Source: a virus
IMG/VR virus record: IMGVR_UViG_3300021090_000723
Span: 40,904-104,903 of that record
Direction: 5' to 3' (one strand)
Length of the DNA: 64,000 bases
Shown: piece after piece, positions 6,501 through 54,542 of the stretch
How the letters are laid out: each line of letters opens with the position of its first letter
Position numbering within the stretch: the stretch's first letter is position 1
Made by a program: the position numbers and the translations under genes
Notes under the pieces: generated by a model
Database searches by the model: none
What the model saw: the letters and a program-made list of their open reading frames with translations, nothing else
Told to the model about the DNA's origin: nothing

Positions 6501-6718
6501 CCGGGGATGAGCTTCGCCACCGCAATGGCGCCCGCGAGCAGGCCGACACCGACGGCGGCGCCGACGATGGGCCCAACGGTCGCGACGGCCGTGGTCGTGA
6601 GCGCGCCGATCACAACGCCGCCCCAGAATCCGGTGAGCGGGTGCTTTTTGATGTACTGGCGGAAGAAGCCCCACTCTTCATCGAACTTCTTCTGCGCCTC
6701 ACCTGTGTTCAGCGACAT
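6497..6718 (-). CDS. Small membrane protein (holin candidate)
   Basis: Gly/Ala-rich C-terminal TM segments; between endolysin and spanins. Confidence 0.6.
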   Translation of the reverse strand: MSLNTGEAQKKFDEEWGFFRQYIKKHPLTGFWGGVVIGALTTTAVATVGPIVGAAVGVGLLAGAIAVAKLIPG

Positions 6719-6720
6719 GG

Positions 6721-7266
6721 TCAGACCTCCTTGTTGGGCGAATCGCCGCCCGCGATCATGCCGGTCACGATGTGGACCGGCTTCACTTCCGTTGGCTGGA
6801 GCTTGTAGATCGGACGACGGCAGGCATGGAGCCGCGCCTTCTCCTTCGCGACGATCGTCACGGCATCGCCCTGGTTCCCGCCCAGGCAATAGAAGCGCGT
6901 CTCGTCCTCGCCGACATACAGCGCCACGTGGCCGCCGCCTTGCCGCTGGAACGTGAGCACGTCACCGAGCGATGGCTCCGGCGAGGCCACGCCGAAGGTC
7001 GCCCAGGACAGCGCGCGCAGCGGGACGGCGGGCGGGTTCTTGCCTGCGCGCTTGGCGATCAGCGCCATGAAGAGGCCGCACCACGGGACATCGTCGCCCG
7101 TGTAGCCGGCGTGATCGAGCCCGGTCTCTTTCGCCCACGCCATGATGGTCGGGTTGTTGCCCGGGCCAGGCGTCTCCAGGGTTCCGTAGAGCTTGACGGC
7201 ATGGACGACCATCAAGGGGCCGGTCAGGGCTGCGAGCCACGCGAATTGGGATGGCAGGGTGCTCAA
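6721..7266 (-). CDS. Endolysin, NlpC/P60 (TIGR02594-like) peptidase
   Basis: DDVPWCGLF, GGGHVALYVGED and LGGNQGD motifs. Confidence 0.88.
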   Translation of the reverse strand: MSTLPSQFAWLAALTGPLMVVHAVKLYGTLETPGPGNNPTIMAWAKETGLDHAGYTGDDVPWCGLFMALIAKRAGKNPPAVPLRALSWATFGVASPEPSLGDVLTFQRQGGGHVALYVGEDETRFYCLGGNQGDAVTIVAKEKARLHACRRPIYKLQPTEVKPVHIVTGMIAGGDSPNKEV

Positions 7267-7296
7267 GGCGGCTTTTCCTCACAGGTTTTGAGGGAA

Positions 7297-7337
7297 GCCG
7301 ACGGACGAGCGCCGACGCGAACAATGACAACTTATCA
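7297..7337 (-). promoter_or_regulatory. Extended -10 plus conserved 5' hairpin motif (copy 1)
   Basis: TGATAAGTT followed by GTCGGCG-loop-CGTCGGC, upstream of the endolysin. Confidence 0.55.
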
Positions 7338-7461
7338 GGCCCATGGGACCGTTGGTAGAGGGCGGCGTGATTCGCACCAGGGATGGCGATGCGCCTGTAC
7401 GATTATTGCGTGTGGCTCGTGTTCGGGGGACCGCTTCTTCTCGCGATCCTGGTCGGCCTCA

Positions 7462-16400: not shown

Positions 16401-19400
16401 TCTGGTTAAGCGCATCGCGGATGAGGTCGATGCCGCGGCGCGCGATCGACTTGCCCTCGGCGCGCGAGGTCGTCCAGTTGACCGACCAGGTCTGGGTGTT
16501 GGGCGCGGTGCCCTCCTGGGCAATGCGCACGTGCCAGGTCGCTTCCTTCGGCACGTATTCAACGATGGCCTCGGTCTCGAGCAGTTCGGAAATGAACCCC
16601 TCGACGTCCGAGTTGGGAATCCACGGCGTGCCCATGCGCACCGCGATCTGAGACGGCTTCAGATCGACTGGCTGGACGACTTCGAGCGCCTTGACGTTCT
16701 CGGCCCACTCGGGCTCGCCCTTGGCAGCGTCACGCGCGAAGGCCAACTTTCCGCGCACGTTGCCCGAGAGATAGACCTCGGACGGCTCGTAGGCGCCGGT
16801 CGCCGGGTTCTTGAAGATGCGGCCCTTGAGTTCGTTGAGGAACGTGCTCGGCTGACGGCCCAGGATTTTTGCCATGTAGGGCACGTCGACTATGCCCTTC
16901 ATGTTCATGGACGCGATCAGCGCCTCGTCCGGCGTGTTCACGCGGAGGATTTCGCGCGTCGGCTCGACCACGCGATCGGTGAAGATCGGGCCTTTGATGC
17001 CCTCGTTCTTCTCTTCATCGAAGCGCTCGAGCGCGGAGACCAGCGCCGCGTCCGGATCGTCACGGAACGCCAGCATGTTCGGGTAGCGGCGGTATTCGCG
17101 CACCTCACCGTCCGGCATCGTGCGCCGGCTGATCTGAACCTGGTTGATGTAGCCGAACGCCTTGACGAACTGGGCGTAGAGTTTCCCCAGTTCCTTCTGC
17201 GGCGCGACCCACGGGGCCGTGCCCTTGCCTTCCCACTCGCCGCGCTGCGCGGTCAAGATCTCGCGGGCCTTGTCGCGGAGCCTGATGAGCAGGCGCACGC
17301 GCCCGGCCTGGCCGTCGGAGAGTTCGACCGGCACGGAGGATTGCAGCACGCGCTGGAACAGCTTGCCGTCACGTTCGAAGAAGGCGTTGTCCTTCACCGT
17401 GTCGGGCGGCGGCGCCAGGTCATCGTATGTGTCCACGTCCCCGGCCTCGGGATCGAAGCGGAGCGCGGACTTCTCCATCATGGCCTGGACGGCATTGGCG
17501 ATCTTCTCGCGCAGGCCCGTTGCCGTTCCGGTAACGGTGTATTCGTCCTCGCGGTACATGCCGCGCGTGACGGCGTTCGTCCCCAGGATCATGTTGGGGT
17601 TGTCTTTGAAATACTGATTGACCGTCGCCGGGCTCGTGCCGACGCGGAACTCCTTGGCCTCCAGCCAATCCGGCTTCCCGGCAGGCTCGCCCTCCTTCCG
17701 CTTACGGATGAACAGGATGTCCGTGACGACTTGGGTCCCGGCGTTCTCCTTGAAGGCGGTGTTGGGGAGACGGATGGCGCCGATCAGGTCGCCGCCGGCG
17801 TCCCGGATCATGGTGCGCGCGGTCTTGTCCTGCGAGTCCATCGTGTAGCGGCTGGTCACGAGCGCAAGCACGCCGCCAGGTTTGACCAGCTTCAGGCTCT
17901 TGAAGATGAAGTAGTTGTGCAGGCTGAGCGGGCGGCCCTTATTGTACATCTTGTCGGCCGGGCGAATGTCGCCGAACGGCACGTTGCCGATGACAAGGTC
18001 CACGCTGTCTTCCGGAAGCGCGGTGTCCTCGAAGCCCTGCACGAAGATGCGCGCCTCGGGGTAGAGCGCTCGCGCGATCTTGCCGGTGACGTCGTCAAGC
18101 TCCACGCCGATGAACTTCGGATCGCTGCCCTTCGGGCGCATGCCCATGAAGTTGCCGATGCCCATGCCGGGTTCGAGCACGTTGCCCGAGCCGGTGAAGC
18201 CGAGTTCGGTCACGCCGTCCCAGATGCCGCGAACCACATCCTGGCTGGTGTAGTGCGCGTTGATGGTGGTCGCGCGAGCCGACGCGAACTGCTCCGGCGT
18301 CAGCATGGCCTTCAGCTGCTCGCGGTAGGGGATCAGGCCGTAGTCGAGCCCGCGGCCCTCATCGAAGATCTTGGCGAGGCCCGTGGCGCCCCAGCCCACG
18401 TAATGGGCAAGCTGCTCCTGGTCCTCACGGCTGGCGAGTTGCCCGCCCTTCTCCAGGTCGAGAGCGACCCGGATGGCTTCGATGTTCTTGACGATGCGCT
18501 GGGCTGGACTGCCGGTGGCATAATCGGCGTCTTCAGCGATGCGGAAGTTTAGTCCTCGTATCCCCCGCTTGGCCCGATCCCCGAGGCTTCCCTCTCGCTC
18601 ATCGGGAGATACTCCCTCAGGGCGTCCGACTCCGCCATCAGGAGGGCGCTCCGCTCCAGCTTGATCCGTCTCTCCAGAGGCTCGTCCTGGCTCACTTGCG
18701 GAAGTTGGCTGTTGACCCAGTTCGCTATCGATTCCGATAGGTCCTGGACCCTCTGCTCCAGCTTCCCCTCCGCCTTCAGGCCCGCGAACTCCTGTGGTCG
18801 GTGCACCCGCAGGTGCCCTTCCACCTTGCTCCGGTAGCTTTCCGGGCTGACCTTTTGCACGTTTTTCCCTTTCGAGCTCGGCCCAGCGCTTCGGAATATC
18901 GATCTTTTTGAGCGCTTCTTCAACTGCCTGCTTGGAGTCGGGCAGCGGCGTGTAGGTCTTTTCCTTGAGCGATCCGTCCTCGTTCCACTCCAGCTGGTCG
19001 AGCAGGCCGCGCCACATCAGGGCGAAATTGGCGCGCTCTTCCTCGGCGGGATAGGGCGTGCCGCGATAGCCGGCTTCCTTGGTCGTCTGGCCTTCCGCCA
19101 CCCAGCCATTGACCAGGTAGGGCGAGGTCTGCCCCTTGGCGGCCAGTTCATCGTAGATGAAGGACTCGAACGAGCGCGCCCACAGTTCCTCGGGCCGCAC
19201 CCAGTATTTGCCAAGCTCTTGGGCGTTGCGCTTGAACTTGGTCGTGAGCTTCGCGCTCCACCCCTCGTTCTGCCAAAGGTGGTCCACGTACTGCTCGGCG
19301 GTCTTGAGCGGGCCCAGGCCTTGCCTGCCCCGGATGTGCGACCGGCCGGTGAGCAGATTGTCGACCATCTTGATCGCACCCTCCACGTCCCAGGTGTGGG

Positions 19401-22400
19401 AGAGCGTGCCGTTGACGCTTGCGAGCAGGGCGCGCGCACTCTGACCGGCGGCCAGCAGCGCCTTCTTCTCGGCCTGGAGCGGCTTGACCTTGTCGGACAA
19501 CTCCATCGAGTTGATCGTGCCCTCGCGGTTCCGCTTCACCAGCGCCTCGATCTCCTTGTCGATCGCCGGGACCCGGACGCCGCCTGCGCGCAGGTTGAAG
19601 TCGAGCGCATGGCCCCATTCGTGCGACAGGGACCCGTCGCCCTTGGTCTTGGTCAGGTTGATGACGTTGGTGTCTGGCTCGTAGTGAGCGGAGCCGAACC
19701 CAGATCCGCGCGAGCCGAACGCCAGGCCCAGCTTACCGCCGATGGAGATTGCCTTCGCTGGCACACCCATTATCTCGGCGAAGTCCATGAGCGCGTCGTA
19801 GGCGGCGTTGACGTGCGCCTGGCCCTCGCGGCCGGTGACCCAGTTCCCGAACTCGACGCCGCGGAAGCCGAAGGTCTTGCGGAAGTCCTCGGCCTTGACG
19901 TTCTTGCCCGCCTTCCGGCGCTCGGGCAGGCCCGGGCGCGTGATGTCCTCGATCCGGATGCTCGGCCGCACGAGGGGCGTGGCGCGTGTCGGCATCGTGT
20001 TGTCGTCGCGGAAGTGGGGCAGGCCTTCGTCCAGGCGCCACAGGTTCGGCCACGAATAGTGGTGCAGGTACGGCCGCAACGTCTTCTGCGCCCAGTCCGT
20101 GGCGATGACGCGCGCCGACATGCCTTCCGGGCGCTGGACCTCTTTGACGATCAGGCGCTTGAGCGCGGCGTGGATGTCCTCGACGTTCTTCGCGCCGGCG
20201 AGCGCATCGCCCAGGATCTCCATCGCGCCGATGTATTCGGCGGCGTTCTCCAGGATGGTCTCGCGCTTCTCCTCCCAGCGCTTCTCCAGCGTCTTTCTGA
20301 ACGGCGTGCGCCATTTGCCACGGCCGCCGCCCTGGTTCTTACCCTCCTGCTCGGTGAAGGTGACGAACGAGCGGGAGACGAAGTCGGCGAAGACGTGGGC
20401 GCCGGTCGTGGCGTCAGCCGCCAGGCGGGAGCGGAGGTCCCGCGCGTCCAGAGCCTGCTCGAGCATCTTGTCCAGATCCTCGATCTTCTCGACCTTGGCT
20501 TTGGCCTGGGCGCGCTTGCCCGCCATGGCCTCGCCCACGTCCGTCATCTTCGGCATGGGCGCGCGGCGGTCGGTGACCGGCTTCCTTGGTTCTTTGACCG
20601 GCCTCTTCTCGGGCGCCTCGATTGTTTCACGTGAAACATCAACGGCCTGGGGCAGAATCGCGGTGGTCGTGTCGCCCTCTTCGATCCACCGTTTGAAGTC
20701 GGCCACGTTCATTTCGAGGCCGCCGTTCTTCCGGCGCTGCGGCCCCGAGCCGTCCGAGTACCCGGCGTCATAGACCGCGATGGCCTGCTCCGGGGTGTCG
20801 ACCGCGGCGATGGCCTTGTGCTCATCGAACTTGCCGGTCTTCGGATCGTACTGATCGATGACGAAGACCTTGTCGCTCTTCAGGTTCGGTCCGAGGTAAA
20901 TGTCCAGCTTTTCCTGCTGGTTAGGCGGGGCGTTCGGCTTCGCATCCGCACCGATCGAGCGCTTGATGTAGCCGTAGTCGGCCAGGATGTTGACGTTCGT
21001 CCAGATCGGCTTGCCGTCCTCGCCCTCGGGCCCAAGGCGATCCGTGCCCTTCGGCGTCTCGATAGTGATGTCCAGGCCGTTCCAGTTCTCGATGTGGCCC
21101 TTGGCGTAATTCCCAGCCTCGCGCTGCGCCTCGGTCGTCTCCTTGGCGACCGCGTCACGCGCCGGCTGGATGTCTTCCTCGGTCTCCGGACGCTTGACGG
21201 GGTTGGTCTTGGTGCCTTCCGGCGCCCGGGCGACGTGCTTGATCTTCGCAAGCTGCTCTTTGGCGCTGGCGATGAGGCCGAGGGCGTCCCGCTTCGCAGA
21301 GTCGGGCCAGCTGCCCGACATTGCCCGCTCGACATAGCTGGTCACATAGGCCTTGGCTTCGTCCAGCGTGGCGAATTCGTTCGCGTGCGAGCCGCCCATG
21401 CCGCCCGCTTGGCTGGTGATGTTGTACGAAATGCGCGGGACCGTGTAGCGGGCCTCCTGCGGGTCGTAGACGATCATAAACGCGAGGTTGCTGCTGCTCT
21501 TCTTCGCCTTGGCCGGGAGCAGTTTGCCGGTGTCGAGCACCACTTCGCCGCGCTCCATGACGGCCTCGTGCTCGTCCCGGGCGACCTTCTCGCGCGCCCT
21601 CCGGGCGTCGTGCTCGGCATCCTCGGCGGCGCGCTGGCTTTTGGCTTCCTTGGCGATCGTCGGCCACTTGTACTCAAGGTCGGACTGCTCGGCCTTCGCC
21701 TTCGCGATGTCCACTTTGTAGCGCTCGATCTGGCTCTTCCACGTGTCGAGGTTGATCTTGGATGGCTTCTTCGGTCCCGCCAGGGCCTCGTCCATGCGCT
21801 TCTGCGTCTCGGCCATGTTGTGCTGGTAGGCCGAGAGGTGGAATTCGCGCTGGCGGTAGTCGTCCAGATCCTGCGCCATCGGATGCTCGGGGGCTTCCGG
21901 CTGCTCGCGCTCCACCAGGTAGTCGCCAATGTCCTTGACCAGGTCCGGGAACTTCTTGCCGTACCACTCCAGGCGCAGGCCCTTGGCCGCGGCGCGCGCG
22001 GCGTAGATCGACTTGTCCCAGCCCGGCTCCGGGGTGAAGCGCTCTTCCTGCGCCTCTTCCTCGGCGCGATCGGCCTCCATCTGGACGATCTCGTCCGTGG
22101 TGGGCTCCATCACGTCTTCGCCGGACTTCTCGCCGGGCGCGAGTTCGCGCGCTGGCGGGGTTATGAGACCAGGCAGCGGCTCAACGGGACCTTCGCCTTC
22201 GCGTTGCGCCATGCGCCGGGCTTCATCGGCGCGCTCATCGGCAATGCGCGTTTCCAGCGCCGCGCGCATCAGCCCGGTTTTGGTGTCGTAGTTCCGGAGG
22301 ATGTGCTCCTGGAACACATCGGCGGCTTCCACGCCGAACGAGTCGGCATAGGCGCCCCACCAGTTCACGAATTCCTCAGGGGCGGCGGTGAAGGCCTCCT

Positions 22401-24762
22401 TGGCCTCTTTATCGAGCCGGTCCTTGGCCTTGGCGTTCTTCGGCGGCTTGCCGGTGGCGGGATCGTTGCCCGAGTCGATGTAGGCCTGCGCCGCGCGCAG
22501 CTGGTTGATGGGCTCTTCGAAGTGCCGCAACGCCTCATCGTGGAAGGCGCGCAGCGTTTCGGTGCGCTCTTCCGGCGTCTCGGCCGGGTTCTCGTCCCAG
22601 AAGCCGGGGCGTCCGGCTTCGCGCAGCGCTTCATCCGCAGGCTCGGGGAACGTCTTCTTGAAGTCGAAGGGCAGTCGTTTGCCGCTCGACTTCTTGCCCT
22701 TTTCCTTGGCGAGATCGGCGGCCTCGCGCTCGATCTGGGCCATTTCCGCCTCGACGTCCTGGGCGGGCTTGGTGCCCGGCACGGTGAACGTCTCCTTGGG
22801 CGGCGTCTCCCTGATCCATTCCTCACTAGGCTCACCTGGCGGCTGGGTGAGATCGGCGCGCTTGACGTCGCCGGTCTTCACGTTGTGCCAGCCGATCTGG
22901 TTGTCCTCTTCGTCGAAGAGCGCTTGCCAGTCCTTGCCACGGGGCTTGGGCGGCATTTCTGCCTTCGGCGGCTGGGTTGGTGGCTTGGGCGGTGGCTCTG
23001 GAGCCTGTTCGGCCGCACCCGCTGGCGGCTCTCCTGGCGCGCCTGGGCGCTCCATCGTGGGCTCGACGCGCGGCTTTTCCGGCTCGCCCTCGCCCCGGAC
23101 GAACGGGTGCGTGGCCGCCGCGATCGTGCCGCCCATCACGCCGCCGGTGAGGCCCGCGGCGATCACTGCGCGGGTGGCTTCACCGAACGTCATCTTCTCG
23201 TTCAGGATGCCCATGGAATAGCCGGTCTGGAGCACCTGGGTGAACATTTCCTGGATGCCTTCGGCGCCTGCCGCCTTGAGCGTGCGCGGCAGGAACTTCC
23301 CGCCCTCCTTGATGATGATCCCGAGCGGGATTTTCTCGCCGGCTGTTTCGGCGAAGGCCATGAACGCGCCGTCGAGCGCGGCCTGGGTGGGCGAGCGGCC
23401 GTTCTTGGCGGACTCGCTGTACTGCTCCAGGCCGACCTGGCTTCCCATCATGGCGAGGCCGATGGCCGGGCTTCTGGTCAGGATGGACGCGCCGACGGTC
23501 GCCAGCATGGGCACGCCGGACTCGATGGCGTTGAAGTAGACACCCTTGATGCTGAGTGGATCGAGGTCTTTCGGGGCGCTCTCCTCGAGATCCTTGAGCG
23601 CGGCGAAGGCGATCTTGCCGCCGATGGTGCTGCCAGCGTCCTTGACCGCCTTCTCGCGCGCGGCGAGCATGCCCTGGTACGCCTCTTCGACCTGTGGCGG
23701 CAGCTTGCCGGTGAACGGATTGACCTGTTCGATCGGATAAGGGACCGGGGCCTGGTCCATGGCGAGAATCGCGCCGCCGATCATGTTCTTCAGGTGCAGC
23801 GGCACGCGCTCGGCGGCCGCCATGGTCAGTTCACCGAAGCTGGGCCCGGGGTCCTTCTTGCCGATGCCCGCGATGAACGCGCGCGCCGCGCCGGCGCCGA
23901 CGCCTTCCACGTCGGGTTGCTCGATGGGCTTGAACGGCTTCTGTTTGGCCGCGAACGCCTCGGCGGCCGCGGGCGTCTCGAACTTGCCCATGTGCTGGCC
24001 GGTCTGCTTGTAGCGCTCGATGATCGCTTCGTCTGACTCGCCCTCGGTCAGCTGCGGGAGCACGGTCTCCTTGAAGATGCCGTTCTCCGTGAACTCGAAC
24101 GAGCGCGTGCCCGCAAAGTCGCCCTTGTAGTTGCCCGGTTCGAGCAGGCCCGGCTCCTGGCGCACGAAGTCCGGCTTGTCAGCGACCGCCTGCGGCGCAG
24201 CGGTGATCGGCTCTTCGGAAACGATCGCATACGGATCATCGCCGCCGGGCGGCGCAGCGGAGATCGCCGTCGGGTCGATCGGCTCTTCGGAAACGATGGC
24301 ATACGGGTCGTCCTGCGGCCCCTGAGACATTTGGACCACGCGCTGGACGTAGTCGTTCGTCTCCGGGAACGGGATCTGGGCGATGAACTCGGCTTCGCTG
24401 ATCTCGCCCTTGCGCGGATCGCCCAGGCGGTTGAGCCAGCCTTCGAGCGCGCCCGGGCCAGCGTTGTAGGCCGCACCCGCGAGCGCCGGGCTTCCATAGC
24501 GCTCAAGCATGGCGGCCGCATAGTCGACGCCTACGCGGTCAAGCTCTTCCGGAGTGTCGTTCGCCGCCGGGCGGACGCCAAAGCCCGGGTCCTTCGCGGT
24601 GCCCGGCATAACCTGCATTTCGGAGCGCGCGCCCTTGGGAGAGACCGCGTTGATCGGGCTCGCTTCCGCGCGCCGGATGATGCTGGGGAAATCGACAGGC
24701 GTGGGCGCGAGCCCTCCGCCGTCCATCGGTTCTTCCGAGACGACGTCCCATTCGTTGACCAT
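7462..24762 (-). CDS. Giant polyvalent virion ejection protein (5766 aa): SLT, InPase, LPD1, DarB-like N6-MTase plus SNF2 helicase, JAB-like, HExxH, LPD38
   Basis: AVSPKGA..MQVMPGTA/AAYNAGPG; EAGNYAKGH..FDEHK; FRGVEFGNW..HEWGH; LEPGMGIG/GNVPF; HLVGAGKT/DEAH/TGTPISN/QREGRIERQGN; HHNH..S..D; HEVIH; VNFNRRG..FYNASIQG. Confidence 0.92.
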   Translation of the reverse strand: MVNEWDVVSEEPMDGGGLAPTPVDFPSIIRRAEASPINAVSPKGARSEMQVMPGTAKDPGFGVRPAANDTPEELDRVGVDYAAAMLERYGSPALAGAAYNAGPGALEGWLNRLGDPRKGEISEAEFIAQIPFPETNDYVQRVVQMSQGPQDDPYAIVSEEPIDPTAISAAPPGGDDPYAIVSEEPITAAPQAVADKPDFVRQEPGLLEPGNYKGDFAGTRSFEFTENGIFKETVLPQLTEGESDEAIIERYKQTGQHMGKFETPAAAEAFAAKQKPFKPIEQPDVEGVGAGAARAFIAGIGKKDPGPSFGELTMAAAERVPLHLKNMIGGAILAMDQAPVPYPIEQVNPFTGKLPPQVEEAYQGMLAAREKAVKDAGSTIGGKIAFAALKDLEESAPKDLDPLSIKGVYFNAIESGVPMLATVGASILTRSPAIGLAMMGSQVGLEQYSESAKNGRSPTQAALDGAFMAFAETAGEKIPLGIIIKEGGKFLPRTLKAAGAEGIQEMFTQVLQTGYSMGILNEKMTFGEATRAVIAAGLTGGVMGGTIAAATHPFVRGEGEPEKPRVEPTMERPGAPGEPPAGAAEQAPEPPPKPPTQPPKAEMPPKPRGKDWQALFDEEDNQIGWHNVKTGDVKRADLTQPPGEPSEEWIRETPPKETFTVPGTKPAQDVEAEMAQIEREAADLAKEKGKKSSGKRLPFDFKKTFPEPADEALREAGRPGFWDENPAETPEERTETLRAFHDEALRHFEEPINQLRAAQAYIDSGNDPATGKPPKNAKAKDRLDKEAKEAFTAAPEEFVNWWGAYADSFGVEAADVFQEHILRNYDTKTGLMRAALETRIADERADEARRMAQREGEGPVEPLPGLITPPARELAPGEKSGEDVMEPTTDEIVQMEADRAEEEAQEERFTPEPGWDKSIYAARAAAKGLRLEWYGKKFPDLVKDIGDYLVEREQPEAPEHPMAQDLDDYRQREFHLSAYQHNMAETQKRMDEALAGPKKPSKINLDTWKSQIERYKVDIAKAKAEQSDLEYKWPTIAKEAKSQRAAEDAEHDARRAREKVARDEHEAVMERGEVVLDTGKLLPAKAKKSSSNLAFMIVYDPQEARYTVPRISYNITSQAGGMGGSHANEFATLDEAKAYVTSYVERAMSGSWPDSAKRDALGLIASAKEQLAKIKHVARAPEGTKTNPVKRPETEEDIQPARDAVAKETTEAQREAGNYAKGHIENWNGLDITIETPKGTDRLGPEGEDGKPIWTNVNILADYGYIKRSIGADAKPNAPPNQQEKLDIYLGPNLKSDKVFVIDQYDPKTGKFDEHKAIAAVDTPEQAIAVYDAGYSDGSGPQRRKNGGLEMNVADFKRWIEEGDTTTAILPQAVDVSRETIEAPEKRPVKEPRKPVTDRRAPMPKMTDVGEAMAGKRAQAKAKVEKIEDLDKMLEQALDARDLRSRLAADATTGAHVFADFVSRSFVTFTEQEGKNQGGGRGKWRTPFRKTLEKRWEEKRETILENAAEYIGAMEILGDALAGAKNVEDIHAALKRLIVKEVQRPEGMSARVIATDWAQKTLRPYLHHYSWPNLWRLDEGLPHFRDDNTMPTRATPLVRPSIRIEDITRPGLPERRKAGKNVKAEDFRKTFGFRGVEFGNWVTGREGQAHVNAAYDALMDFAEIMGVPAKAISIGGKLGLAFGSRGSGFGSAHYEPDTNVINLTKTKGDGSLSHEWGHALDFNLRAGGVRVPAIDKEIEALVKRNREGTINSMELSDKVKPLQAEKKALLAAGQSARALLASVNGTLSHTWDVEGAIKMVDNLLTGRSHIRGRQGLGPLKTAEQYVDHLWQNEGWSAKLTTKFKRNAQELGKYWVRPEELWARSFESFIYDELAAKGQTSPYLVNGWVAEGQTTKEAGYRGTPYPAEEERANFALMWRGLLDQLEWNEDGSLKEKTYTPLPDSKQAVEEALKKIDIPKRWAELEREKRAKGQPGKLPEQGGRAPAGAPTTGVRGPEGGGEAGAEGPGPIGIDSELGQQPTSASEPGRASGETDQAGAERPPDGGVGRPEGVSPDEREGSLGDRAKRGIRGLNFRIAEDADYATGSPAQRIVKNIEAIRVALDLEKGGQLASREDQEQLAHYVGWGATGLAKIFDEGRGLDYGLIPYREQLKAMLTPEQFASARATTINAHYTSQDVVRGIWDGVTELGFTGSGNVLEPGMGIGNFMGMRPKGSDPKFIGVELDDVTGKIARALYPEARIFVQGFEDTALPEDSVDLVIGNVPFGDIRPADKMYNKGRPLSLHNYFIFKSLKLVKPGGVLALVTSRYTMDSQDKTARTMIRDAGGDLIGAIRLPNTAFKENAGTQVVTDILFIRKRKEGEPAGKPDWLEAKEFRVGTSPATVNQYFKDNPNMILGTNAVTRGMYREDEYTVTGTATGLREKIANAVQAMMEKSALRFDPEAGDVDTYDDLAPPPDTVKDNAFFERDGKLFQRVLQSSVPVELSDGQAGRVRLLIRLRDKAREILTAQRGEWEGKGTAPWVAPQKELGKLYAQFVKAFGYINQVQISRRTMPDGEVREYRRYPNMLAFRDDPDAALVSALERFDEEKNEGIKGPIFTDRVVEPTREILRVNTPDEALIASMNMKGIVDVPYMAKILGRQPSTFLNELKGRIFKNPATGAYEPSEVYLSGNVRGKLAFARDAAKGEPEWAENVKALEVVQPVDLKPSQIAVRMGTPWIPNSDVEGFISELLETEAIVEYVPKEATWHVRIAQEGTAPNTQTWSVNWTTSRAEGKSIARRGIDLIRDALNQKSTVISWQDSEGKTHTDMNATIVAQEKQNDIKERFSKWIWKDPERGARLSRFYNDNFNNLRVATFNGDHLTLPGSSSTIELRSTQKKAVWRYLVSGNTLLDHLVGAGKTFTAIAAAMEAKRIGLLSKPLFSVPNHMLEQFSREFMQLYPNASILVADERAFAGDNRRRFVARAAAGNWDAIIMTHSSFERVGMSAKFQADYIRDEIAEYADLIRAARETDTGGRSPTVKQLEAAKKRREEKLRELMQAKDKDRGLSFEEMGVDGIFVDEAHLFKNLEFATKITNMNPPSSQRAFDLYLKTKYIDKMTPGRGLMFMTGTPISNSMAEMYTMQRYLQPRGLAERGLSHFDAWASTFGDTVTQAEITPEGGKAMLKTRFARFRNIPELISMYRQFSDLVSKDDLIATGQVKLPKISGGGPKTIIVPASDALKAYIAEIGERAEAVRKREVTPDEDNMLLISTDGRKASLDLRVVDPAARKEKVRKASEVASNAARIYKAGAKEKHTQIIFCDMSVPSNVAYSIYRDIKEELVKKGVNANDVAFVQDANTDQKKANLFADVRAGRKRILLGSTEKMGIGTNVQDRLKALHHVDPSWRPSDIEQREGRIERQGNTNEEIDLFRYVTEGSFDAYMWQTVERKARFINQIKRGDPSVREAEDIDEQVLSFAEAKALAAGNPLILDKAKADSDVDRLSRLRGAHYDNIHEMEWQIHRLPGEIAGMEEARGRVKADHAAYLERKDKPHYTILGTVYEKRVDASKALADIIEKAWNLQKSKNEAQGRKRNAEIEDIPIGKMYGFPISVEVDGYYQPQAVIHGKMTDKVELDLQSLKLGAISRIENFFKSRPGEIDYRQAKIDTAKKKLVDFKELVKVPFEREDQYQAALKRQRKIDQALGLIEADPQPVAGAPEPDLPPRRSAGFILSEAPGEGLGLAPPARPPRDEGMLARRIVEGNSDLADDLGKFVAKKKAKTPAAVNVAIGDWLRAFGERTKTEAAVAYDPATQTVIAAETSGKDTYVNLRGKIEDALSKPDARIVFHHNHTMPYGLSFADLTLLDLPGLDWMIAHTTEGQWHAARLTPETRRAFADLDLTLWSSPSDILNKMLQESQNAQGRVGRSLIRERGLDRNLAVANFSHNFAVGLARAGLIDYRSSVVVPESLAATFDTMAQAGAEAIASPLKAIGVVNVSDRGTAPTQFADGIAEILGEDQGLAVEPRGGAGEGARPEGVGRGLERLRLPQAPPVIETGDGVTFTFSPEFEAKREQLAADLRAYLVNRNLPLAVRVADAIADPEGHEADGHFDITKNLITIALDTKDPFGTITHEVIHGLRNLGFFTKSEWATLEAAAKDKWKRTFDIVGKYYKPDVQTEETIAFAAQNYEPSNEFAKAGLATKVLQRVRNFFEGLRNFFRGRGFQTPEDIFKRIESGRIGKRGKAGPTRSEAKFALKPQPPAPFFSTLARTIEASKQEKASGIQWQAFIKNARGITKDETEWTGVNEWLESQQGPVTKQALLDFIRENNVQIEEVEKGRAPGDDEGPYPENIEDWLPDEERTIQPEGQRYYSEMAFDADDASVTFHYDQRGVVTRVNAIRAGRELGDFGDFIEAREAIHRDAGIVAEGGATKFESQTLPGGENYRELLLTLPQIGVPFDPAKVRIERNRRSTTQGDVTVFYGDHKVGTWDDPIVLNSVTKKYEGPNDAHWIDVMRRRYPGDRSLAIDALSGQFRSGHFDEANILAHVRFKDRADADGKRVLFIEEIQSDWHQKGRRQGYSVKETRSPVFSIFDDQGELVGTRPTLDQAQEFIRDKHGRRPAWNRDDQAPMDTTNWTIKEGEAIEKRTGVPDAPFKSTWHEIALKRMLRYAAENGYDRLAWTTGAQQAERYNLAKHVNSLRLTDNVSGGIGRPRMDGPFERGHLIAYGKRNEEAINRQIESRDDLAELVGAELADKLLAVTPVEGRSAGLGVRVREISGLDLTVGGEGMKGFYDRIVPQFLNRYAKKWDAKVGTTKIDTGKESEPSWTVAETHPQKKQGVIDVHSLDVTPAMRESVMEGQGLFARRMPPGANAFTMFTDSPQPSVVDYLRNSNLSLMERLKGAASLSAINASFDKWRVGFQDRYLKVARMQAAIEQMLGRPLTEEENAYLAEELSSGRKGAKLEDLFERQIRPLVLAMHERGISREELETFLYARHAPERNARINEINPKFREEGIAGSGMSDEDARGIMDEVDKTGRRADFDALAGMVDDVLAFALNTRVEAGLMSEEQAEAWRATYRDYVPLRGVAELDPEVEADRPRPGKGFDVKGKESHRAFGRQSPARDILAYAFMQAEEAIIRGENNRIGNAIYELAKAAPNENFWKVDKVAMRPVWIKARQEVQYWPVRRILAEDAPYTLSTKIDGQEHRITFNRNNPVARDLAQGLKGLGQDQISLLIRNFGAINRILSHVNTTLNPEFVITNAFRDAQTALSNIQAHGDIKGITKGTVKDYRKALVASSRSAFKAEPGKTLMPWMAKDQAEWDRWAQEFRENGGRVYFNQMEDVLELRKRLDGQMREIGTSKLNPIMAMKTLGRIIENTNIGVENAIRLSAYKNARERGFTPAKAASLAKNLTVNFNRRGSWGPLMNSLYLFYNASIQGTATLLTAWKSPRVRKVAAFAVLTGFLLDFLNAFVSDEDDDGQLLYDKVTPFDKSRNLIVMTPSEGGVAAKIPLPYGYNIFYGVGRSIAEVMRGKDPLESAGNLAITIMDSFNPVGGAQNLLNMIAPTTMDPVVDLFMNKDYAGRPIAPEQSQYGPQVPNSQRYWNSVSPAYKAVTDFLSTASGGTGVEPGLIEISPEWLDYGFGVAWGAAGTFYERNFLDLPMKFADPTSTITFNDIPFVRRVVTSKPPWIDKATFYERINKIEQSRAYARDYQREGRRPEARGFVQENRAMLSLYNDANNARTELSEIRASRAQAKMALEQGRMARPRYNEQVRILNEAEERIIRMFNAEYLERTRRRP
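12717..12866 (-). CDS. Overprinted 49-aa ORF (MYLIEEPPPLSS...) in the +1 frame of the giant gene
   Basis: GGAG SD 6 nt upstream of ATG; helical protein-like sequence; the giant frame is a low-complexity linker here. Confidence 0.55.
   Translation of the reverse strand: MYLIEEPPPLSSPMALRRFLARTKDLPSSPEVEQARARAQKALEEALKD
18549..18860 (-). CDS. Overprinted ~103-aa TnpV-like ORF in the +1 frame of the giant gene
   Basis: AAGGG SD then GTG; HLRVHRPQEFAGLKAEGKL..MAESDALREYL resembles the TnpV pattern; the giant frame is a G/P/E linker here. Confidence 0.55.
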   Translation of the reverse strand: MQKVSPESYRSKVEGHLRVHRPQEFAGLKAEGKLEQRVQDLSESIANWVNSQLPQVSQDEPLERRIKLERSALLMAESDALREYLPMSEREASGIGPSGGYED

Positions 24763-29312: not shown

Positions 29313-29337
29313 AACGAGACGGTGACGATGCGAAAGG

Positions 29338-29412
29338 TGGCAGCTGCTGAGGGAGTCGAACCCTACGTCCCCGGAGTCAAAGTCCGGTGCCCTACCGTTA
29401 GACCAAGCAGCC
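29338..29412 (-). tRNA. tRNA-Gln(TTG)
   Basis: Cloverleaf; loop CTTTGAC; CCA encoded. Confidence 0.92.
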
Positions 29413-29413
29413 G

Positions 29414-29489
29414 TGGCGCGCCCAGGGGGAGTCGAACCCTCCGTTTGCCGATTGAGAATCGGCGTTCCTGACCGTTAGAAGATGGGCGC
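29414..29489 (-). tRNA. tRNA-Glu(CTC)
   Basis: Loop TTCTCAA; CCA encoded. Confidence 0.92.
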
Positions 29490-29491
29490 AT

Positions 29492-29565
29492 TGGCGCAGC
29501 TGCGGGGAATCGAACCCCGGTTGTCGGAGTGAAAATCCGCTCTCCGGCCACTAGAGGACAGCTGC
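29492..29565 (-). tRNA. tRNA-Glu(TTC)
   Basis: Loop TTTTCAC; CCA encoded. Confidence 0.92.
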
Positions 29566-29568
29566 GAT

Positions 29569-29642
29569 TGGCGAGGGTGCGACGAATCGAACGCCGGTCA
29601 TCGGGTTTGGAAGCCGAGGCCCTACCACTGGGCGACACCCCC
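29569..29642 (-). tRNA. tRNA-Trp(CCA)
   Basis: Loop TTCCAAA; G73; C31-C39 mismatch. Confidence 0.85.
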
Positions 29643-29647
29643 TGAAG

Positions 29648-29721
29648 TGGTGCGGACGGAGAGGATCGAACTCTCACCCCCGGGTTGGAAGCCCGGTACT
29701 CTGCCGTAGAGCTACGTCCGC
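29648..29721 (-). tRNA. tRNA-Gly(TCC)
   Basis: Loop CTTCCAA; A73; CCA encoded. Confidence 0.92.
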
Positions 29722-29722
29722 G

Positions 29723-29793
29723 TGCGGGTCGCCGGAATCGAACCGGCATCAGCGGAGTGGCACTCCGCGGCCCAGCCAATAGACCAGACCCGC
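29723..29793 (-). tRNA. tRNA-Gly(GCC)
   Basis: Loop GTGCCAC; no encoded CCA. Confidence 0.88.
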
Positions 29794-29798
29794 AAAAA

Positions 29799-29873
29799 TG
29801 GACATGCGCGCCGGAATCGAACCGGCTCATCGCGATTTTGCAGACCGCCGCGTTCCCACCTCGCCCGCGCATG
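29799..29873 (-). tRNA. tRNA-Cys(GCA)
   Basis: Loop CTGCAAA; U73; CCA encoded. Confidence 0.9.
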
Positions 29874-29916
29874 CAAGCATCCAGTTCAGTTTGCGAAATT
29901 TCGATATTTCGATATT

Positions 29917-29990
29917 TGGCGACCCCACATGGATTTGAACCACGATTTCCAGAGTCAGAGTCTGGCGGCCTACCGTTGGCCGATGGAGCC
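29917..29990 (-). tRNA. tRNA-Gln(CTG)
   Basis: Loop CTCTGAC; CCA encoded. Confidence 0.92.
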
Positions 29991-29997
29991 TTGGAAA

Positions 29998-30074
29998 TGG
30001 TTGCGGGGGTCGGAATCGAACCGACGACGCCTGCGCCTTCAACGCAGCGCTCTACCGGACTGAGCTACCCCGCC
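29998..30074 (-). tRNA. tRNA-Phe(GAA)
   Basis: Loop TTGAAGG; CCA encoded. Confidence 0.92.
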
Positions 30075-30092
30075 AAGAGGCAGCGCGTTGGC

Positions 30093-30140
30093 TTATCGCC
30101 AACAACCTCGTTCGGGAAATCGTTGCTGTCGATTGAGCAT
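30093..30140 (-). CDS. Leader peptide D, MLNRQQRFPERGCWR (precedes the Phe/Gln/Cys/Gly/Trp/Glu tRNAs)
   Basis: Codons match the downstream tRNAs; 4 CGA; TAA lies in the loop of the GTTGGC/GCCAAC hairpin. Confidence 0.75.
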   Translation of the reverse strand: MLNRQQRFPERGCWR

Positions 30141-30145
30141 GCCAA

Positions 30146-30220
30146 TGGCTGCGGAGGACGGGCTCGAACCGCCGACCTCGCACTTAACAGGCGCTCGCTC
30201 TACCACTGAGCTACTCCGCA
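30146..30220 (-). tRNA. tRNA-Asn(GTT)
   Basis: Loop CTGTTAA; G73; CCA encoded. Confidence 0.92.
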
Positions 30221-30263
30221 CTGCCGTCTCCATTGGTTGGCCCACCAGGTGGGCGAGGCGCCG

Positions 30264-30292
30264 GTTTTGTCAACCGGGCCCCGAAATGTCAA
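30264..30292 (-). promoter_or_regulatory. Putative sigma70 promoter for the Asn/leader D block
   Basis: Two TTGACA hexamers (30292-30287 and 30273-30268); weak -10. Confidence 0.45.
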
Positions 30293-30305
30293 GCAGAGTG
30301 TAAAG

Positions 30306-30381
30306 TGGCGTCCCCGGTAGGAATCGAACCCACGTCTGGCCGGATTAGAAGTCCGGTGCCTTTCCGCTAGGCTACGGGGAC
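30306..30381 (-). tRNA. tRNA-Arg(TCT)
   Basis: Loop CTTCTAA; CCA encoded. Confidence 0.92.
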
Positions 30382-30383
30382 GT

Positions 30384-30458
30384 TGGAGGACCAGGCGGGG
30401 CTCGAACCCGCAACCGTTCGATTAAAAGTCGACTGCACCACCATCGTGCTGCTGGTCC
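30384..30458 (-). tRNA. tRNA-Lys(TTT)
   Basis: Loop CTTTTAA; CCA encoded. Confidence 0.9.
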
Positions 30459-30459
30459 G

Positions 30460-30531
30460 TGAACCGGGTGGGACTTGAACCCACAACCATCGGATTAAGA
30501 GTCCGCCGCACCACCATCGTGCTGCCGGTTC
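30460..30531 (-). tRNA. tRNA-Lys(CTT)
   Basis: Loop CTCTTAA; no encoded CCA. Confidence 0.88.
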
Positions 30532-30562
30532 AAAACGATCGCCGACTATAGTCGGCGGAAGT

Positions 30563-30637
30563 TGGCGTGCGCGGAGGGAGTCGAACCCACAGCTTCCAGA
30601 TTCGTAATCTGGCGCTCTTCCGTTGAGCTTCGCGCAC
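30563..30637 (-). tRNA. tRNA-Arg(ACG)
   Basis: Loop TTACGAA; CCA encoded. Confidence 0.92.
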
Positions 30638-30641
30638 AAAC

Positions 30642-30716
30642 TGGCGTTCCCGGGTGGATTCGAACCACCGCCCTTCAGATCCGGAATCTGACGCTCCTCC
30701 GCTGAGCCACGGGAAC
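30642..30716 (-). tRNA. tRNA-Arg(CCG)
   Basis: Loop TTCCGGA; CCA encoded. Confidence 0.92.
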
Positions 30717-30746
30717 AAGTCAAAAATCGCCACATCTGACGTAAAC

Positions 30747-30821
30747 TGGCGCGCGTTAGGGGTATCGAACCCCTGACCTTCCGGTTGACAACCGGGTGCT
30801 CTCCCTCTGAGCTAAACGCGC
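30747..30821 (-). tRNA. tRNA-Asp(GTC)
   Basis: Loop TTGTCAA; G73; CCA encoded. Confidence 0.92.
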
Positions 30822-30825
30822 AGTC

Positions 30826-30902
30826 TGGTCGCAGGGGCTGGGATCGAACCAGCGCATGACGCCCTTATGAGGGGCGGGCCTTTCCAGCTTGGCTACCCTG
30901 CG
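30826..30902 (-). tRNA. tRNA-Met(CAT), elongator (Ile2 not excluded)
   Basis: Loop CTCATAA; positions 1 and 72 paired. Confidence 0.85.
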
Positions 30903-30974
30903 TCGTTCTGGATGGTCTCGAACCACCGTCCTCACGATTATCGGTCGCGCGCTCTACCACTGAGCTACAGAACG
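30903..30974 (-). tRNA. tRNA-Ile(GAT)
   Basis: Loop CCGATAA (C33); no encoded CCA; abuts tRNA-Met. Confidence 0.88.
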
Positions 30975-30978
30975 TCAT

Positions 30979-31053
30979 TGGTACGCGCAGAGGGGATCGA
31001 ACCCACCGTTTCCGGGTCCACAACCCAGCGTCCTTCCATTGGACGATGCGCGC
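30979..31053 (-). tRNA. tRNA-His(GTG), type lacking G-1
   Basis: Loop TTGTGGA; G1-U72; A73; C at position -1. Confidence 0.9.
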
Positions 31054-31057
31054 GAAT

Positions 31058-31134
31058 TGGTCTGAGCGGCAGGATTCGAACCTGCGTGTACCTGGTCCCA
31101 AACCAGGTGCGTGACCAGGCTACGCTACGCTCAG
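31058..31134 (-). tRNA. tRNA-Pro(TGG)
   Basis: Loop TTTGGGA; CCA encoded. Confidence 0.92.
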
Positions 31135-31139
31135 GAAAA

Positions 31140-31216
31140 TGGTCGCCCCTGCACGGAATCGAACCTGCGACCTCCCGGGTGTAGGCCGGGCACTCTACCA
31201 GCTGAGCTAAGGGGCG
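31140..31216 (-). tRNA. tRNA-Val(TAC)
   Basis: Loop CCTACAC (C33); CCA encoded. Confidence 0.9.
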
Positions 31217-31268
31217 GCGCGGTGAACGGGGGAGCGGGCGTGGGCCCGCGGTGAGGGACGAGGTCGCC

Positions 31269-31346
31269 TTAGGCGACGACTATCCTATGCGGTCGAATGG
31301 ACATTCGCCGCTTTCTTGGATCTCGTGGTTTGAGAACCGTGCTCAT
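31269..31346 (-). CDS. Leader peptide C, MSTVLKPRDPRKRRMSIRPHRIVVA (precedes the Val/Pro/His/Ile/Met/Asp/Arg/Lys tRNAs)
   Basis: Codons match the downstream tRNAs; TAA forms the loop of GTCGCC/GGCGAC; promoter directly upstream. Confidence 0.8.
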   Translation of the reverse strand: MSTVLKPRDPRKRRMSIRPHRIVVA

Positions 31347-31354
31347 GGCCGGGG

Positions 31355-31383
31355 TGTATGACGGATCATCTTGTTGTCGTCAA
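31355..31383 (-). promoter_or_regulatory. sigma70-like promoter for leader C
   Basis: TTGACG-17nt-CATACA, 8 nt before the ATG (near-leaderless). Confidence 0.6.
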
Positions 31384-31391
31384 CAACGTGA

Positions 31392-31478
31392 TGGTCGGAG
31401 CGGAGGGATTCGAACCCTCTAGCCGCAAGCGGACCGGATTTACAGTCCGGCGCAACCCACCGTCTTTGCCGCGCTCCG
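31392..31478 (-). tRNA. tRNA-Tyr(GTA)
   Basis: Loop CTGTAAA; long variable arm; CCA encoded. Confidence 0.92.
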
Positions 31479-31514
31479 TATATCAAACAGGCCGTTTCGG
31501 TATACGTTTGAGAT

Positions 31515-31596
31515 TGGTAGGCCCGGAGAGATTTGAACTCTCACGCCGAGGCGCCTGCTTCTGAGGCAGGTGTGTCTGCCGTTCCACCACGGGCCC
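31515..31596 (-). tRNA. tRNA-Leu(CAG)
   Basis: Loop CTCAGAA; CCA encoded. Confidence 0.92.
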
Positions 31597-31598
31597 AC

Positions 31599-31675
31599 TG
31601 GTAGGCGCGGAGAGACTCGAACTCTCAGATGTCGGGATTTAACGCCGATGCGTCTGCCGATTCCGCCACGCGCCC
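31599..31675 (-). tRNA. tRNA-Leu(TAA) with a short variable region
   Basis: Loop GTTAAAT; Leu-type D arm; A73; 5-nt variable loop. Confidence 0.82.
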
Positions 31676-31682
31676 GAGAAGC

Positions 31683-31724
31683 TCAGGCAAGTCGTAAGGT
31701 GCGGTATCGTAGGTTCGTGCGCAT
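31683..31724 (-). CDS. Leader peptide B, MRTNLRYRTLRLA (precedes the Leu/Leu/Tyr tRNAs)
   Basis: GAAGGA SD; CTA, TAC, TTA and CTT codons; 2 CGA. Confidence 0.72.
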   Translation of the reverse strand: MRTNLRYRTLRLA

Positions 31725-31734
31725 GCGATCCTTC

Positions 31735-31763
31735 TTGCATTTCCCCGCGCGGCTGTCTACAGA
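31735..31763 (+). promoter_or_regulatory. sigma70-like promoter for leader A (in the divergent region)
   Basis: TTGCAT-17nt-TACAGA, 9 nt before the ATG. Confidence 0.55.
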
Positions 31764-31772
31764 GCGGCCACC

Positions 31773-31835
31773 ATGTTCCGAACGCGAACCACTCGAGCGG
31801 CACGAGCCGCAACACGATCAAGTTCCTCTTCCTGA
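31773..31835 (+). CDS. Leader peptide A, MFRTRTTRAARAATRSSSSS (precedes the Ser/Ser/Ala/Thr tRNAs)
   Basis: All four Thr codons, three Ala codons and four Ser codons are sampled; 5 CGA; stop lies 3 nt before tRNA-Ser. Confidence 0.82.
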   Translation: MFRTRTTRAARAATRSSSSS

Positions 31836-31838
31836 TAC

Positions 31839-31926
31839 GGAAGGGTGGCAGAGTGGTTTATTGCGGCGCACTGCTAACGCGCCGGACCTGAAGGTCCCGT
31901 AGGTTCGAATCCTATCCCTTCCGCCA
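31839..31926 (+). tRNA. tRNA-Ser(GCT)
   Basis: Loop CTGCTAA; long variable arm; G73; CCA encoded. Confidence 0.93.
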
Positions 31927-31931
31927 ATCTC

Positions 31932-32020
31932 GGATGGGTCCGCTGCGTGGGCGGCAACCGGCTTCGAATACCGGCATGGGGTCCGTCAGGGCAGGGGTTC
32001 AACTCCTCACCCATCCGCCA
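31932..32020 (+). tRNA. tRNA-Ser(CGA), atypical (possible 8/4 fold)
   Basis: Loop TTCGAAT; GGATGGGT/ACCCATCC acceptor; long variable region; G73; CCA encoded. Confidence 0.75.
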
Positions 32021-32039
32021 ATCTTCCAGATCAGGATAA

Positions 32040-32114
32040 GGGCTCGTAGCTCAGCGGGAGAGCACCGGCTTTGCATACCGGGTGTCGTGGGTTCGATTCC
32101 CACCGGGTCCACCA
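32040..32114 (+). tRNA. tRNA-Ala(TGC)
   Basis: G3-U70; loop TTTGCAT; CCA encoded. Confidence 0.93.
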
Positions 32115-32124
32115 GTTTGGAAAT

Positions 32125-32201
32125 GCCGGCGTAGCTCAGATGGTAGAGCAGTGTCTTTGTAATTCACAGGTCGCGGGTTCGAGTCCTCGCCGCCGGCTCC
32201 A
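32125..32201 (+). tRNA. tRNA-Thr(TGT)
   Basis: Anticodon TGT; CCA encoded. Confidence 0.92.
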
Positions 32202-32205
32202 AACC

Positions 32206-32526
32206 TCACCCGAGGGTGCAGATCGTGAATCGACCGCGCTTCGAGAACAGCTGCTTGGTCGCGTCCGTGTACCGCAGCTGGACGTGCCAGTTACCGGCTT
32301 GATCGAGTTGTCCGATGGTGAAGGTGTAGGTCACATACTCGTTGGGGAGGAACGTGCCGACCTCCGTCACGATTTCGAGCGCGCCCAGTTCCACGGCGGG
32401 GTTGGTCACCACCAGCGTGGTGTTGTCCGGCTTGGTGAAGGTGAGTTCGAGCCCGGTGAAGGCTGACATATCGTAGCCGACACCGAAGCGGATCTGGACG
32501 CCGAAACTACCAACGAAAATGGTCAT
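32206..32526 (-). CDS. BppU-N/Ig-like virion protein
   Basis: FTKPD..YTF..LDQAGNW.VQL pattern. Confidence 0.7.
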   Translation of the reverse strand: MTIFVGSFGVQIRFGVGYDMSAFTGLELTFTKPDNTTLVVTNPAVELGALEIVTEVGTFLPNEYVTYTFTIGQLDQAGNWHVQLRYTDATKQLFSKRGRFTICTLG

Positions 32527-54328: not shown

Positions 54329-54405
54329 TGGTTGCGCAGGAGGGATTTGAACCCCCGACCTTCAGCTTATGAGGCTGACGAGCTACCGGGCTGCTCCACC
54401 GCGCC
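54329..54405 (-). tRNA. Initiator-like tRNA-Met(CAT)
   Basis: GAGCAGCCCGGTAGCTCGTC D arm; 1-72 mismatch; loop CTCATAA; CCA encoded. Confidence 0.88.
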
Positions 54406-54542
54406 ACCAGTCCCGCCACCCGCCCGACCCTTTCGGGTCGGGCTTCGTGGCGACTCGCGACCAAGAAGGTCTGTCCGTCCTACGCCAGGTCCCGGAGGAG
54501 CACTGATCCGGATAGCCTCGCCCACTGATTCGCGAACCCGGA

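Follow-up and report, generated by a model that had tools for sequence, protein, structure and literature searches.

Why some phages carry near-complete sets of transfer RNA (tRNA) genes, and how such sets are controlled, is an old question, and it is raised anew by an array in a 64,000-nucleotide (nt) stretch of viral DNA, namely positions 40,904 to 104,903 of the IMG/VR virus record IMGVR_UViG_3300021090_000723 (hereafter the window, in which positions are counted). At 29338-32201, ARAGORN finds 28 tRNA genes that together cover 20 of the 20 amino acids, with 24 genes on the minus strand and four (Ser, Ser, Ala, and Thr) on the plus strand; the two groups diverge from a 163-nt spacer, and the further long spacers of the array are 175, 85, 71, and 43 nt. 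An earlier note on this DNA had claimed that the array splits into four units, each headed by a tiny open frame with codons for the tRNAs behind it, and had read these frames as attenuators that sense the depletion of tRNA. Are the four frames then leaders of the tRNA blocks, and if so, of which kind? The four ATG frames are indeed present with the coordinates and the translations that the note gave, and the match in amino acids between leader and block is non-random and very unlikely to have arisen by chance. On balance, we lean toward regarding the four frames as real and selected leaders that are read by ribosomes and are matched to the tRNAs of their own unit; such leaders probably link the speed at which the matched codons are decoded to how much tRNA the downstream block yields. 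Classical attenuation with a terminator is not supported in the window.

The frames, called here leaders A to D, are 13-25 codons in length, and their stops are located 3, 7, 52, and 18 nt, respectively, before the first tRNA of the block. In a shuffled spacer, any such frame is obtained with a probability of 0.36 (A), 0.59 (B), 0.33 (C), and 0.10 (D). The near-exclusive partition of amino acids that had been described earlier is borne out, in that Q, E, G, C, and W occur only in leader D; K, D, H, I, and V only in leader C; and Y only in leader B. Also, the claim that each frame has codons for every amino acid of its own unit holds for 19 of the 20 but fails for Asn; by position, tRNA-Asn falls into the block of leader C, whose codons do not include one for Asn; an Asn codon is instead present in leader D. 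In leader C, the codons AAA and AAG as well as CGA, CGG, AGA, and AGG fit both of the Lys tRNAs and all three of the Arg tRNAs, and even the 8-codon frame that is coupled to leader C by ATGA has six of its seven residues cognate to block C. Deliberate sampling of synonymous codons, on the other hand, is indistinguishable here from an effect of the non-coding base composition.

We scored the match by an automatic pipeline without hand choice, which takes as leader the ATG frame that is closed, has 10 or more codons, and comes nearest to the downstream tRNA, and which assigns to the block all tRNAs before the next such spacer; Asn is hence counted in block C. With this scoring, 43 of the 69 leader residues match a tRNA of the block behind them, and the coverage is 19 of the 20 amino acids. 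A permutation test of the leader/block concordance had been proposed in the earlier note, and the array passes it: when the 20 amino-acid labels were permuted 2e7 times, 43/69 was reached by none of the permutations and 19/20 by 21 of them. The permutation P stays at 1.6e-4 or below when any one leader is omitted, and the overall match does not depend on leader A, in which 6- and 9-nt tandem repeats make for a sequence of low complexity. In dinucleotide-preserving shuffles of the own spacer with frames of like length, furthermore, the cognate fraction gave P values of 5e-4 for leader A (optimistic because of the repeats), 0.023 for B, 0.0019 for C, and 0.013 for D, and the Fisher combination of the four amounts to ~6e-7. 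Every leader is in the top 4% for the cognate fraction when compared with 471 other short ATG frames of the genome, and the other frames of the same spacers have no enrichment. Full coverage of the block by leader D has a P of 7.5e-5 per shuffled spacer and 0.0017 given a frame of like length.

When the same pipeline was applied to 52 control phage arrays, the P values were roughly uniform (e.g., 0.82 and 0.57 in the GC-rich arrays L136 and L199), and the array of the window ranks first of the 53 by a wide margin. In a coverage-only test, just leader D stood out, and coverage alone compared with the peptides of 120 other, mostly AT-rich, phage arrays was borderline (Fisher ~0.02-0.04), a result that is overturned by the composition-aware and permutation tests. 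Those who prefer chance as the explanation would take the frames for meaningless open stretches in spacers of which the real content is promoters, processing sites, and hairpins, with a match that was picked post hoc from many arrays. Indeed, coverage of the block by a single leader is not rare (P of 0.58 for A, 0.11 for B, and 0.07 for C), frames with full coverage are found in control arrays as well (22/128), no general effect is seen in the pooled controls, and neither a start signal nor a switch nor conservation is seen here in an array that was preceded by the reading of very many windows. Nonetheless, chance would also have to account for a joint statistic that withstands the removal of any leader, for the combined shuffle value, for the first rank among 53 arrays, and for two independent, frame-specific traits common to all four leaders, and we thus consider it improbable.

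The first of these traits is the use of CGA, which makes up 14 of the 69 leader codons (20%), compared with an average of 2% in the other short frames of the genome; 14 of the 16 CGA trinucleotides within the leader frames are in frame 0. CGA is a rare codon in this phage (11% of Arg codons), and no enrichment is found in the spacers outside the frames, where it amounts to ~3.2% versus 2.9% genome-wide. The second trait concerns the stops, all four of which are within gap-free hairpins of 6-8 base pairs (bp); among null frames, 12% have a hairpin of at least 6 bp.

These traits also bear on the idea that the frames matter in some other way, either as small, Arg-rich, basic peptides or as untranslated triplets that act at the level of RNA or DNA. 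All four peptides are very basic with 4-6 Arg residues each, and the stop hairpins together with the spacing of CGA by 9-12 nt could be signals in RNA or DNA. In E. coli, a protamine-like frame, tpr, lies behind tyrT. The 175-nt spacer with leader C (31217-31391, minus strand), moreover, is strongly structured as RNA and folds into four hairpins, far better than its shuffles do (z-score, -3.5); it could also be a small stable RNA. Neither version, however, explains why the amino-acid content tracks the adjacent tRNAs, and CGA is specific to the frame inside the leaders and not enriched outside; a role of this sort is therefore quite improbable in our judgment.

Matched leaders were found in other phage tRNA arrays as well. 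Among the 52 control arrays, three had a P below 0.01, where 0.5 was expected, and two of them, L200 and L140, which are unrelated phage loci, were inspected. In each of the three units of L200 (IMG/VR, 6140-8660), a promoter-like site and a leader frame precede a strong hairpin with a T-run, and a tRNA block follows; each of the leaders contains the amino acids of its own block. In L140 (IMG/VR, 770-1250), a consensus promoter is followed by one tRNA, a leader, a strong terminator, and nine tRNAs, and each of the nine amino acids of this block is represented in the leader. Two cultured Cellulophaga phages, phi17:2 and phi4:1, are relatives of L200 and are equipped with the same three units (Table 1). 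In phi17:2, where one start codon was chosen by hand, the leaders have 44 cognate residues out of 78 and account for 18 of the 19 amino acids (P = 1.5e-5); the hypothetical protein gp077 of this phage is probably such a leader. A strict automatic search of the controls for units of a leader and a terminator gave only nine, with a P of 0.2 and with one L200 frame mis-picked. As far as sequence can tell, codon-matched leaders before phage tRNA blocks are thus a real pattern, and elsewhere this pattern comes with the hardware of a textbook attenuator. In the literature searched, we found no paper on such control of tRNA genes.

Table 1. Coordinates of the leaders, tRNA blocks, and associated elements (positions in the window unless an accession number is given)
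Feature	Position	Strand	Description	Basis
Leader A	31773..31835	+	20 codons; Ser/Ala/Thr, 13/19 residues; 5 in-frame CGA; stop 3 nt before tRNA-Ser	
Leader B	31683..31724	-	13 codons; Leu x3, Tyr x1; stop 7 nt before tRNA-Leu	
Leader C	31269..31346	-	25 codons; 19/24 residues cognate to block C; V, P, H, I, M, D, R, K all represented	
8-codon frame	31343..31369	-	upstream of leader C; stop overlaps start of leader C (ATGA)	
Leader D	30093..30140	-	15 codons; F, Q (CAG and CAA), E, G, C, W, i.e., all six amino acids of block D; 4 in-frame CGA	
Stop-codon hairpin A	31826..31845	+	7 bp; 3' arm is nt 1-7 of tRNA-Ser	
Stop-codon hairpin B	31671..31689	-	8 bp; 3' arm includes nt 1-5 of tRNA-Leu	
Stop-codon hairpin C	31263..31277	-	6 bp; TAA in loop	
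Stop-codon hairpin D	30086..30104	-	7 bp; TAA in loop	
Terminator-like hairpin	31234..31249	-	GC-rich, 6 bp, without T-run; between leader C and tRNA-Val	
Structured spacer	30221..30305	-	85 nt; no ATG frame; two exact TTGACA hexamers	fold z-score, -2.7
tRNA array	29338..32201	both	28 genes, all 20 amino acids	ARAGORN; Rfam tRNA model
Block A	31839..32201	+	tRNA-Ser(GCT), Ser(CGA), Ala(TGC), Thr(TGT)	ARAGORN
Block B	31392..31675	-	tRNA-Leu(TAA), Leu(CAG), Tyr(GTA), all long-arm	
Block C	30306..31216	-	Val, Pro, His, Ile, Met, Asp, Arg, Arg, Lys, Lys, Arg	
tRNA-Asn	30146..30220	-	5 nt upstream of the start of leader D	
Block D	29338..30074	-	Phe, Gln, Cys, Gly, Gly, Trp, Glu, Glu, Gln	
phi17:2 array (L248)	NC_021798.1 85308-93604		three units of leader, hairpin/T-run, and tRNA block	
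phi4:1 array (L249)	NC_021788.1 83855-92521		three units of leader, hairpin/T-run, and tRNA block	

The exact model of the earlier note was more specific, with attenuators of the trp/his type in which stalling of the ribosome flips an antiterminator against an intrinsic terminator and the induced block replaces tRNAs lost to anticodon nucleases of the host. Its logic fits the terminator-bearing units of L200, L140, phi17:2, and phi4:1, and phage tRNAs are described as countering tRNA-targeting defences in three reports (PMC10264068, PMC11464382, PMC11555353). GC-rich hairpins without a T-run also seem to be what this phage uses at gene ends; at 54406-54450 (minus strand), a perfect hairpin that is rich in GC, has a GAAA loop, and lacks a T-run is directly upstream of a lone tRNA-Met (54329-54405). 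In the window, however, leaders A and B have no room for a terminator because their stops are 3 and 7 nt from the first tRNA, and only GC hairpins without a T-run are found at C and D; sites with both a hairpin and a T-run are located only inside block C (30540-30557 and 30728-30741, minus strand). An alternative pairing that could act as an antiterminator was not found for A, B, and D, and wherever the ribosome is placed, the terminator-like hairpin behind C is predicted to form. Furthermore, the leader codons are not matched to the anticodons of the block, as a sensor for the replacement of cleaved tRNAs would need, and no defence or nuclease context was found, none having been looked for. 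Of the interpretation as attenuators, therefore, the amino-acid match stands, as does the same logic with terminators in other phage arrays, but the terminator, the antiterminator, and the match of codon to anticodon do not, and we regard the exact model as unlikely to be correct for this array.

As for promoters and start signals, leaders A, B, and C have weak -35-like hexamers at a distance of 30-38 nt upstream of the ATG, and a weak AGGA is present upstream of leader B only. A candidate promoter is in the 85-nt spacer between block C and tRNA-Asn. The hexamer TTGACA is avoided in the window, with six occurrences compared with 15.5 expected, and two of the six are in this spacer at 30268-30292 (minus strand), 19 nt apart. 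The spacer may hence be a promoter, from which tRNA-Asn, leader D, and block D would be transcribed as one unit; if this is true, tRNA-Asn would belong to leader D, and the coverage would become 20/20. In this respect the unit would be like L140, where one tRNA is also placed between the promoter and the leader.

How, then, might matched leaders work without intrinsic terminators? The leaders would be translated, perhaps from very short or absent 5' leader segments, and the fate of the RNA downstream would depend on where the ribosome stands near the 3' end of the leader; the controlled step is not a canonical terminator with a hairpin and a U-run. Leaders A and B are unstructured (z-scores of +0.6 and +2.2, respectively) and rich in C (C/G ratios of 1.6 and 2.0), and the region of leader B folds worse than 199 of 200 shuffles. 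In these two units, a stalled ribosome might mask the unstructured, C-rich leader, which resembles a loading site for Rho, in the style of the tna operon. As a second candidate, the 3' end of leaders A and B might compete with the acceptor stem of the first tRNA, and the effect would then be exerted via folding of the tRNA or access of RNase P. In units C and D, the control might instead be exerted at the stop-codon hairpin or at the GC-rich hairpins that lack a U-run. As for the sign of the regulation, an increase in tRNA upon slow decoding is assumed here by analogy with the terminator-bearing units of the Cellulophaga phages and is not derivable from the sequence of the window. Taken to its full extent, the array could be a four-channel decoding gauge for 20 amino acids that works without intrinsic terminators; translated leaders would gate the blocks via the stop-codon hairpin, which in two units involves the 5' end of the first tRNA in its pairing, or via masking of a Rho site, and the CGA codons would be programmed slow steps for the timing of the ribosome. 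We put forward this extended scheme only tentatively and would not be surprised if it were wrong.

Quite a few results, in this paragraph and the next, weigh against the view that the four frames are selected, ribosome-read leaders. No consensus (sigma-70-type) promoter and no terminator with a hairpin and a T-run was found at any leader in a consensus scan. Leaders A, C, and D have no Shine-Dalgarno sequence; this is weak evidence because the phage uses few of them, and only ~24-39% of its long frames show one. Modelling of the ribosome position, which covered leader C, left the hairpin behind it with a probability of ~0.99 in all six states (no ribosome, stalled at four codons, and at the stop), and stalls at different cognate codons would put the stop hairpin in different states. 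Pairing of the leader with the first tRNA is marginal in A (P = 0.037) and B (P = 0.047) when compared with shuffled leaders and absent in C and D, so that it is not significant overall. Most amino acids occur once per leader, which makes for a weak sensor. By standard wobble rules, 11 of 24 informative codons are readable by the anticodons of the block, compared with 12.3 expected; this count is confined to amino acids whose phage tRNAs read part of the codon family and could be blurred by modification of U34. For Ser-CGA, Leu-CAG, Glu-CTC, and Gly-TCC, indeed, the corresponding leader has no codon that the tRNA could read, and the lack of an Asn codon in leader C, behind which tRNA-Asn is located, belongs here as well. 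Pooled control arrays have no general match between leader and block (0.586 observed and 0.605 when swapped), this array was singled out from very many windows read, and the traits of CGA and the stop hairpins were spotted post hoc.

Conservation is the other point on this side. In the closest relative found, L082, of which a neighbouring protein is 84% identical, the array is replaced by a 264-amino-acid gene, and no tRNA is present. The exchange is confined to the interval between the same two conserved genes (29323-32208 of the window; 8753-9710 of L082), and the array at this site is exchangeable cargo. Among more distant relatives of 64 kilobases, the number of tRNAs is 0-2. No homologous array was found in IMG/VR, the JGI metagenome loci retrieved, GTDB genomes, or INPHARED. 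Alignment-based scans yielded 120 loci, none of which has a tRNA array beside the homologous gene, and single-protein scans of IMG/VR with both of the flanking genes gave no matches. When IMG/VR virus contigs were searched for a degenerate peptide of leader D, two anticodon-loop triples, and the CGA skeleton, no true match was obtained, nor was there one in GTDB genomes, which were scanned with two patterns; in blastn against INPHARED, single tRNAs only were matched. Relatives that are ~95-97% alike do exist in two freshwater runs, only as pieces of 151 nt.

Set beside known systems, the four frames look familiar in part. In attenuators with a leader peptide, a short upstream frame carries codons cognate to the supply downstream, and multivalent leaders are also known (PMC1183508, PMC3082878). 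The frames of the window are like the ilvGMEDA, thr, trpL, hisL, and pheL leaders in being short, upstream, and rich in cognate codons, and like those of ilvGMEDA and thr in that several amino acids would be read at once. In the operons for amino acids, however, enzymes are regulated, whereas here the targets would be tRNA genes; the amino acids are mostly single and not in runs, no pair of terminator and antiterminator is demonstrable, and two of the leaders abut the first tRNA. A tiny matched frame for each block, with several units that together cover most amino acids, is shared with phi17:2, phi4:1, L200, and L140. Units of the phi17:2 type, nonetheless, are AT-rich and have a strong hairpin and a T-run that end 5-13 nt before the first tRNA (~125 nt in L140), all of which is missing in the window; the latter is in turn characterized by stop-codon hairpins, CGA punctuation, and 64% GC, and there is no sequence homology between the two. 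The tna operon with its leader peptide TnaC offers another comparison, in that a held ribosome could mask a C-rich, unstructured stretch and thereby block termination by Rho; judging from composition and lack of structure, this would fit leaders A and B, which have no intrinsic terminator, but the RNA downstream is here highly structured tRNA. T-box riboswitches likewise control translation genes by sensing the status of tRNA, through direct binding of tRNA without translation, and neither a T-box nor any other Rfam family was matched in the spacers with E values up to 1. Leader attenuators of pheST and other genes for aminoacyl-tRNA synthetases are alike in that a leader peptide controls the decoding machinery; unlike the window, those of the pheST type respond to one amino acid and have a protein product and a canonical terminator.

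Should the leaders work as proposed, a classical logic of control would have gained a new target in the tRNA genes, through feedback that is read by the ribosome. The supply of tRNA would then be tied to the speed of decoding, which bears on the compensation of codon usage and on the escape from host defences that cleave tRNA. What the window contributes is a GC-rich example in which the amino acids are divided unusually neatly among the four leaders, and the absence of a canonical terminator means either that a different switch is used or that the match has another purpose. As the same logic is present in cultured Cellulophaga phages, the idea is directly testable.

The source record is 104.9 kilobases in length, ~88% complete, and ~64% in GC. 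The same phage is also present in a second freshwater-sediment study, and no RNA run is among the sequencing runs listed as containing it. In an Rfam search with E values up to 1, the spacers of the array gave only tRNA and chance matches, i.e., nothing credible besides the tRNA model, and the 11-mers that the spacers have in common with other parts of the genome were chance matches only. Within the array, the 3' CCA is encoded in nearly all of the tRNA genes, and the long-arm tRNAs (Ser, Leu, and Tyr) cluster around the divergent spacer. The 43-nt spacer between tRNA-Gln and tRNA-Cys in block D (29874-29916, minus strand) has a GC content of 35% and an 8-nt periodic repeat resembling TCGAAAT. 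The array is flanked by phage structural genes on the minus strand. Elsewhere in the window, one open frame of 5766 codons adjoins tail-like genes (7462-24762, minus strand), and a protein similar to nicotinamide phosphoribosyltransferase (PHROG 448, E = 5e-183) is encoded at 4-2034 on the plus strand.

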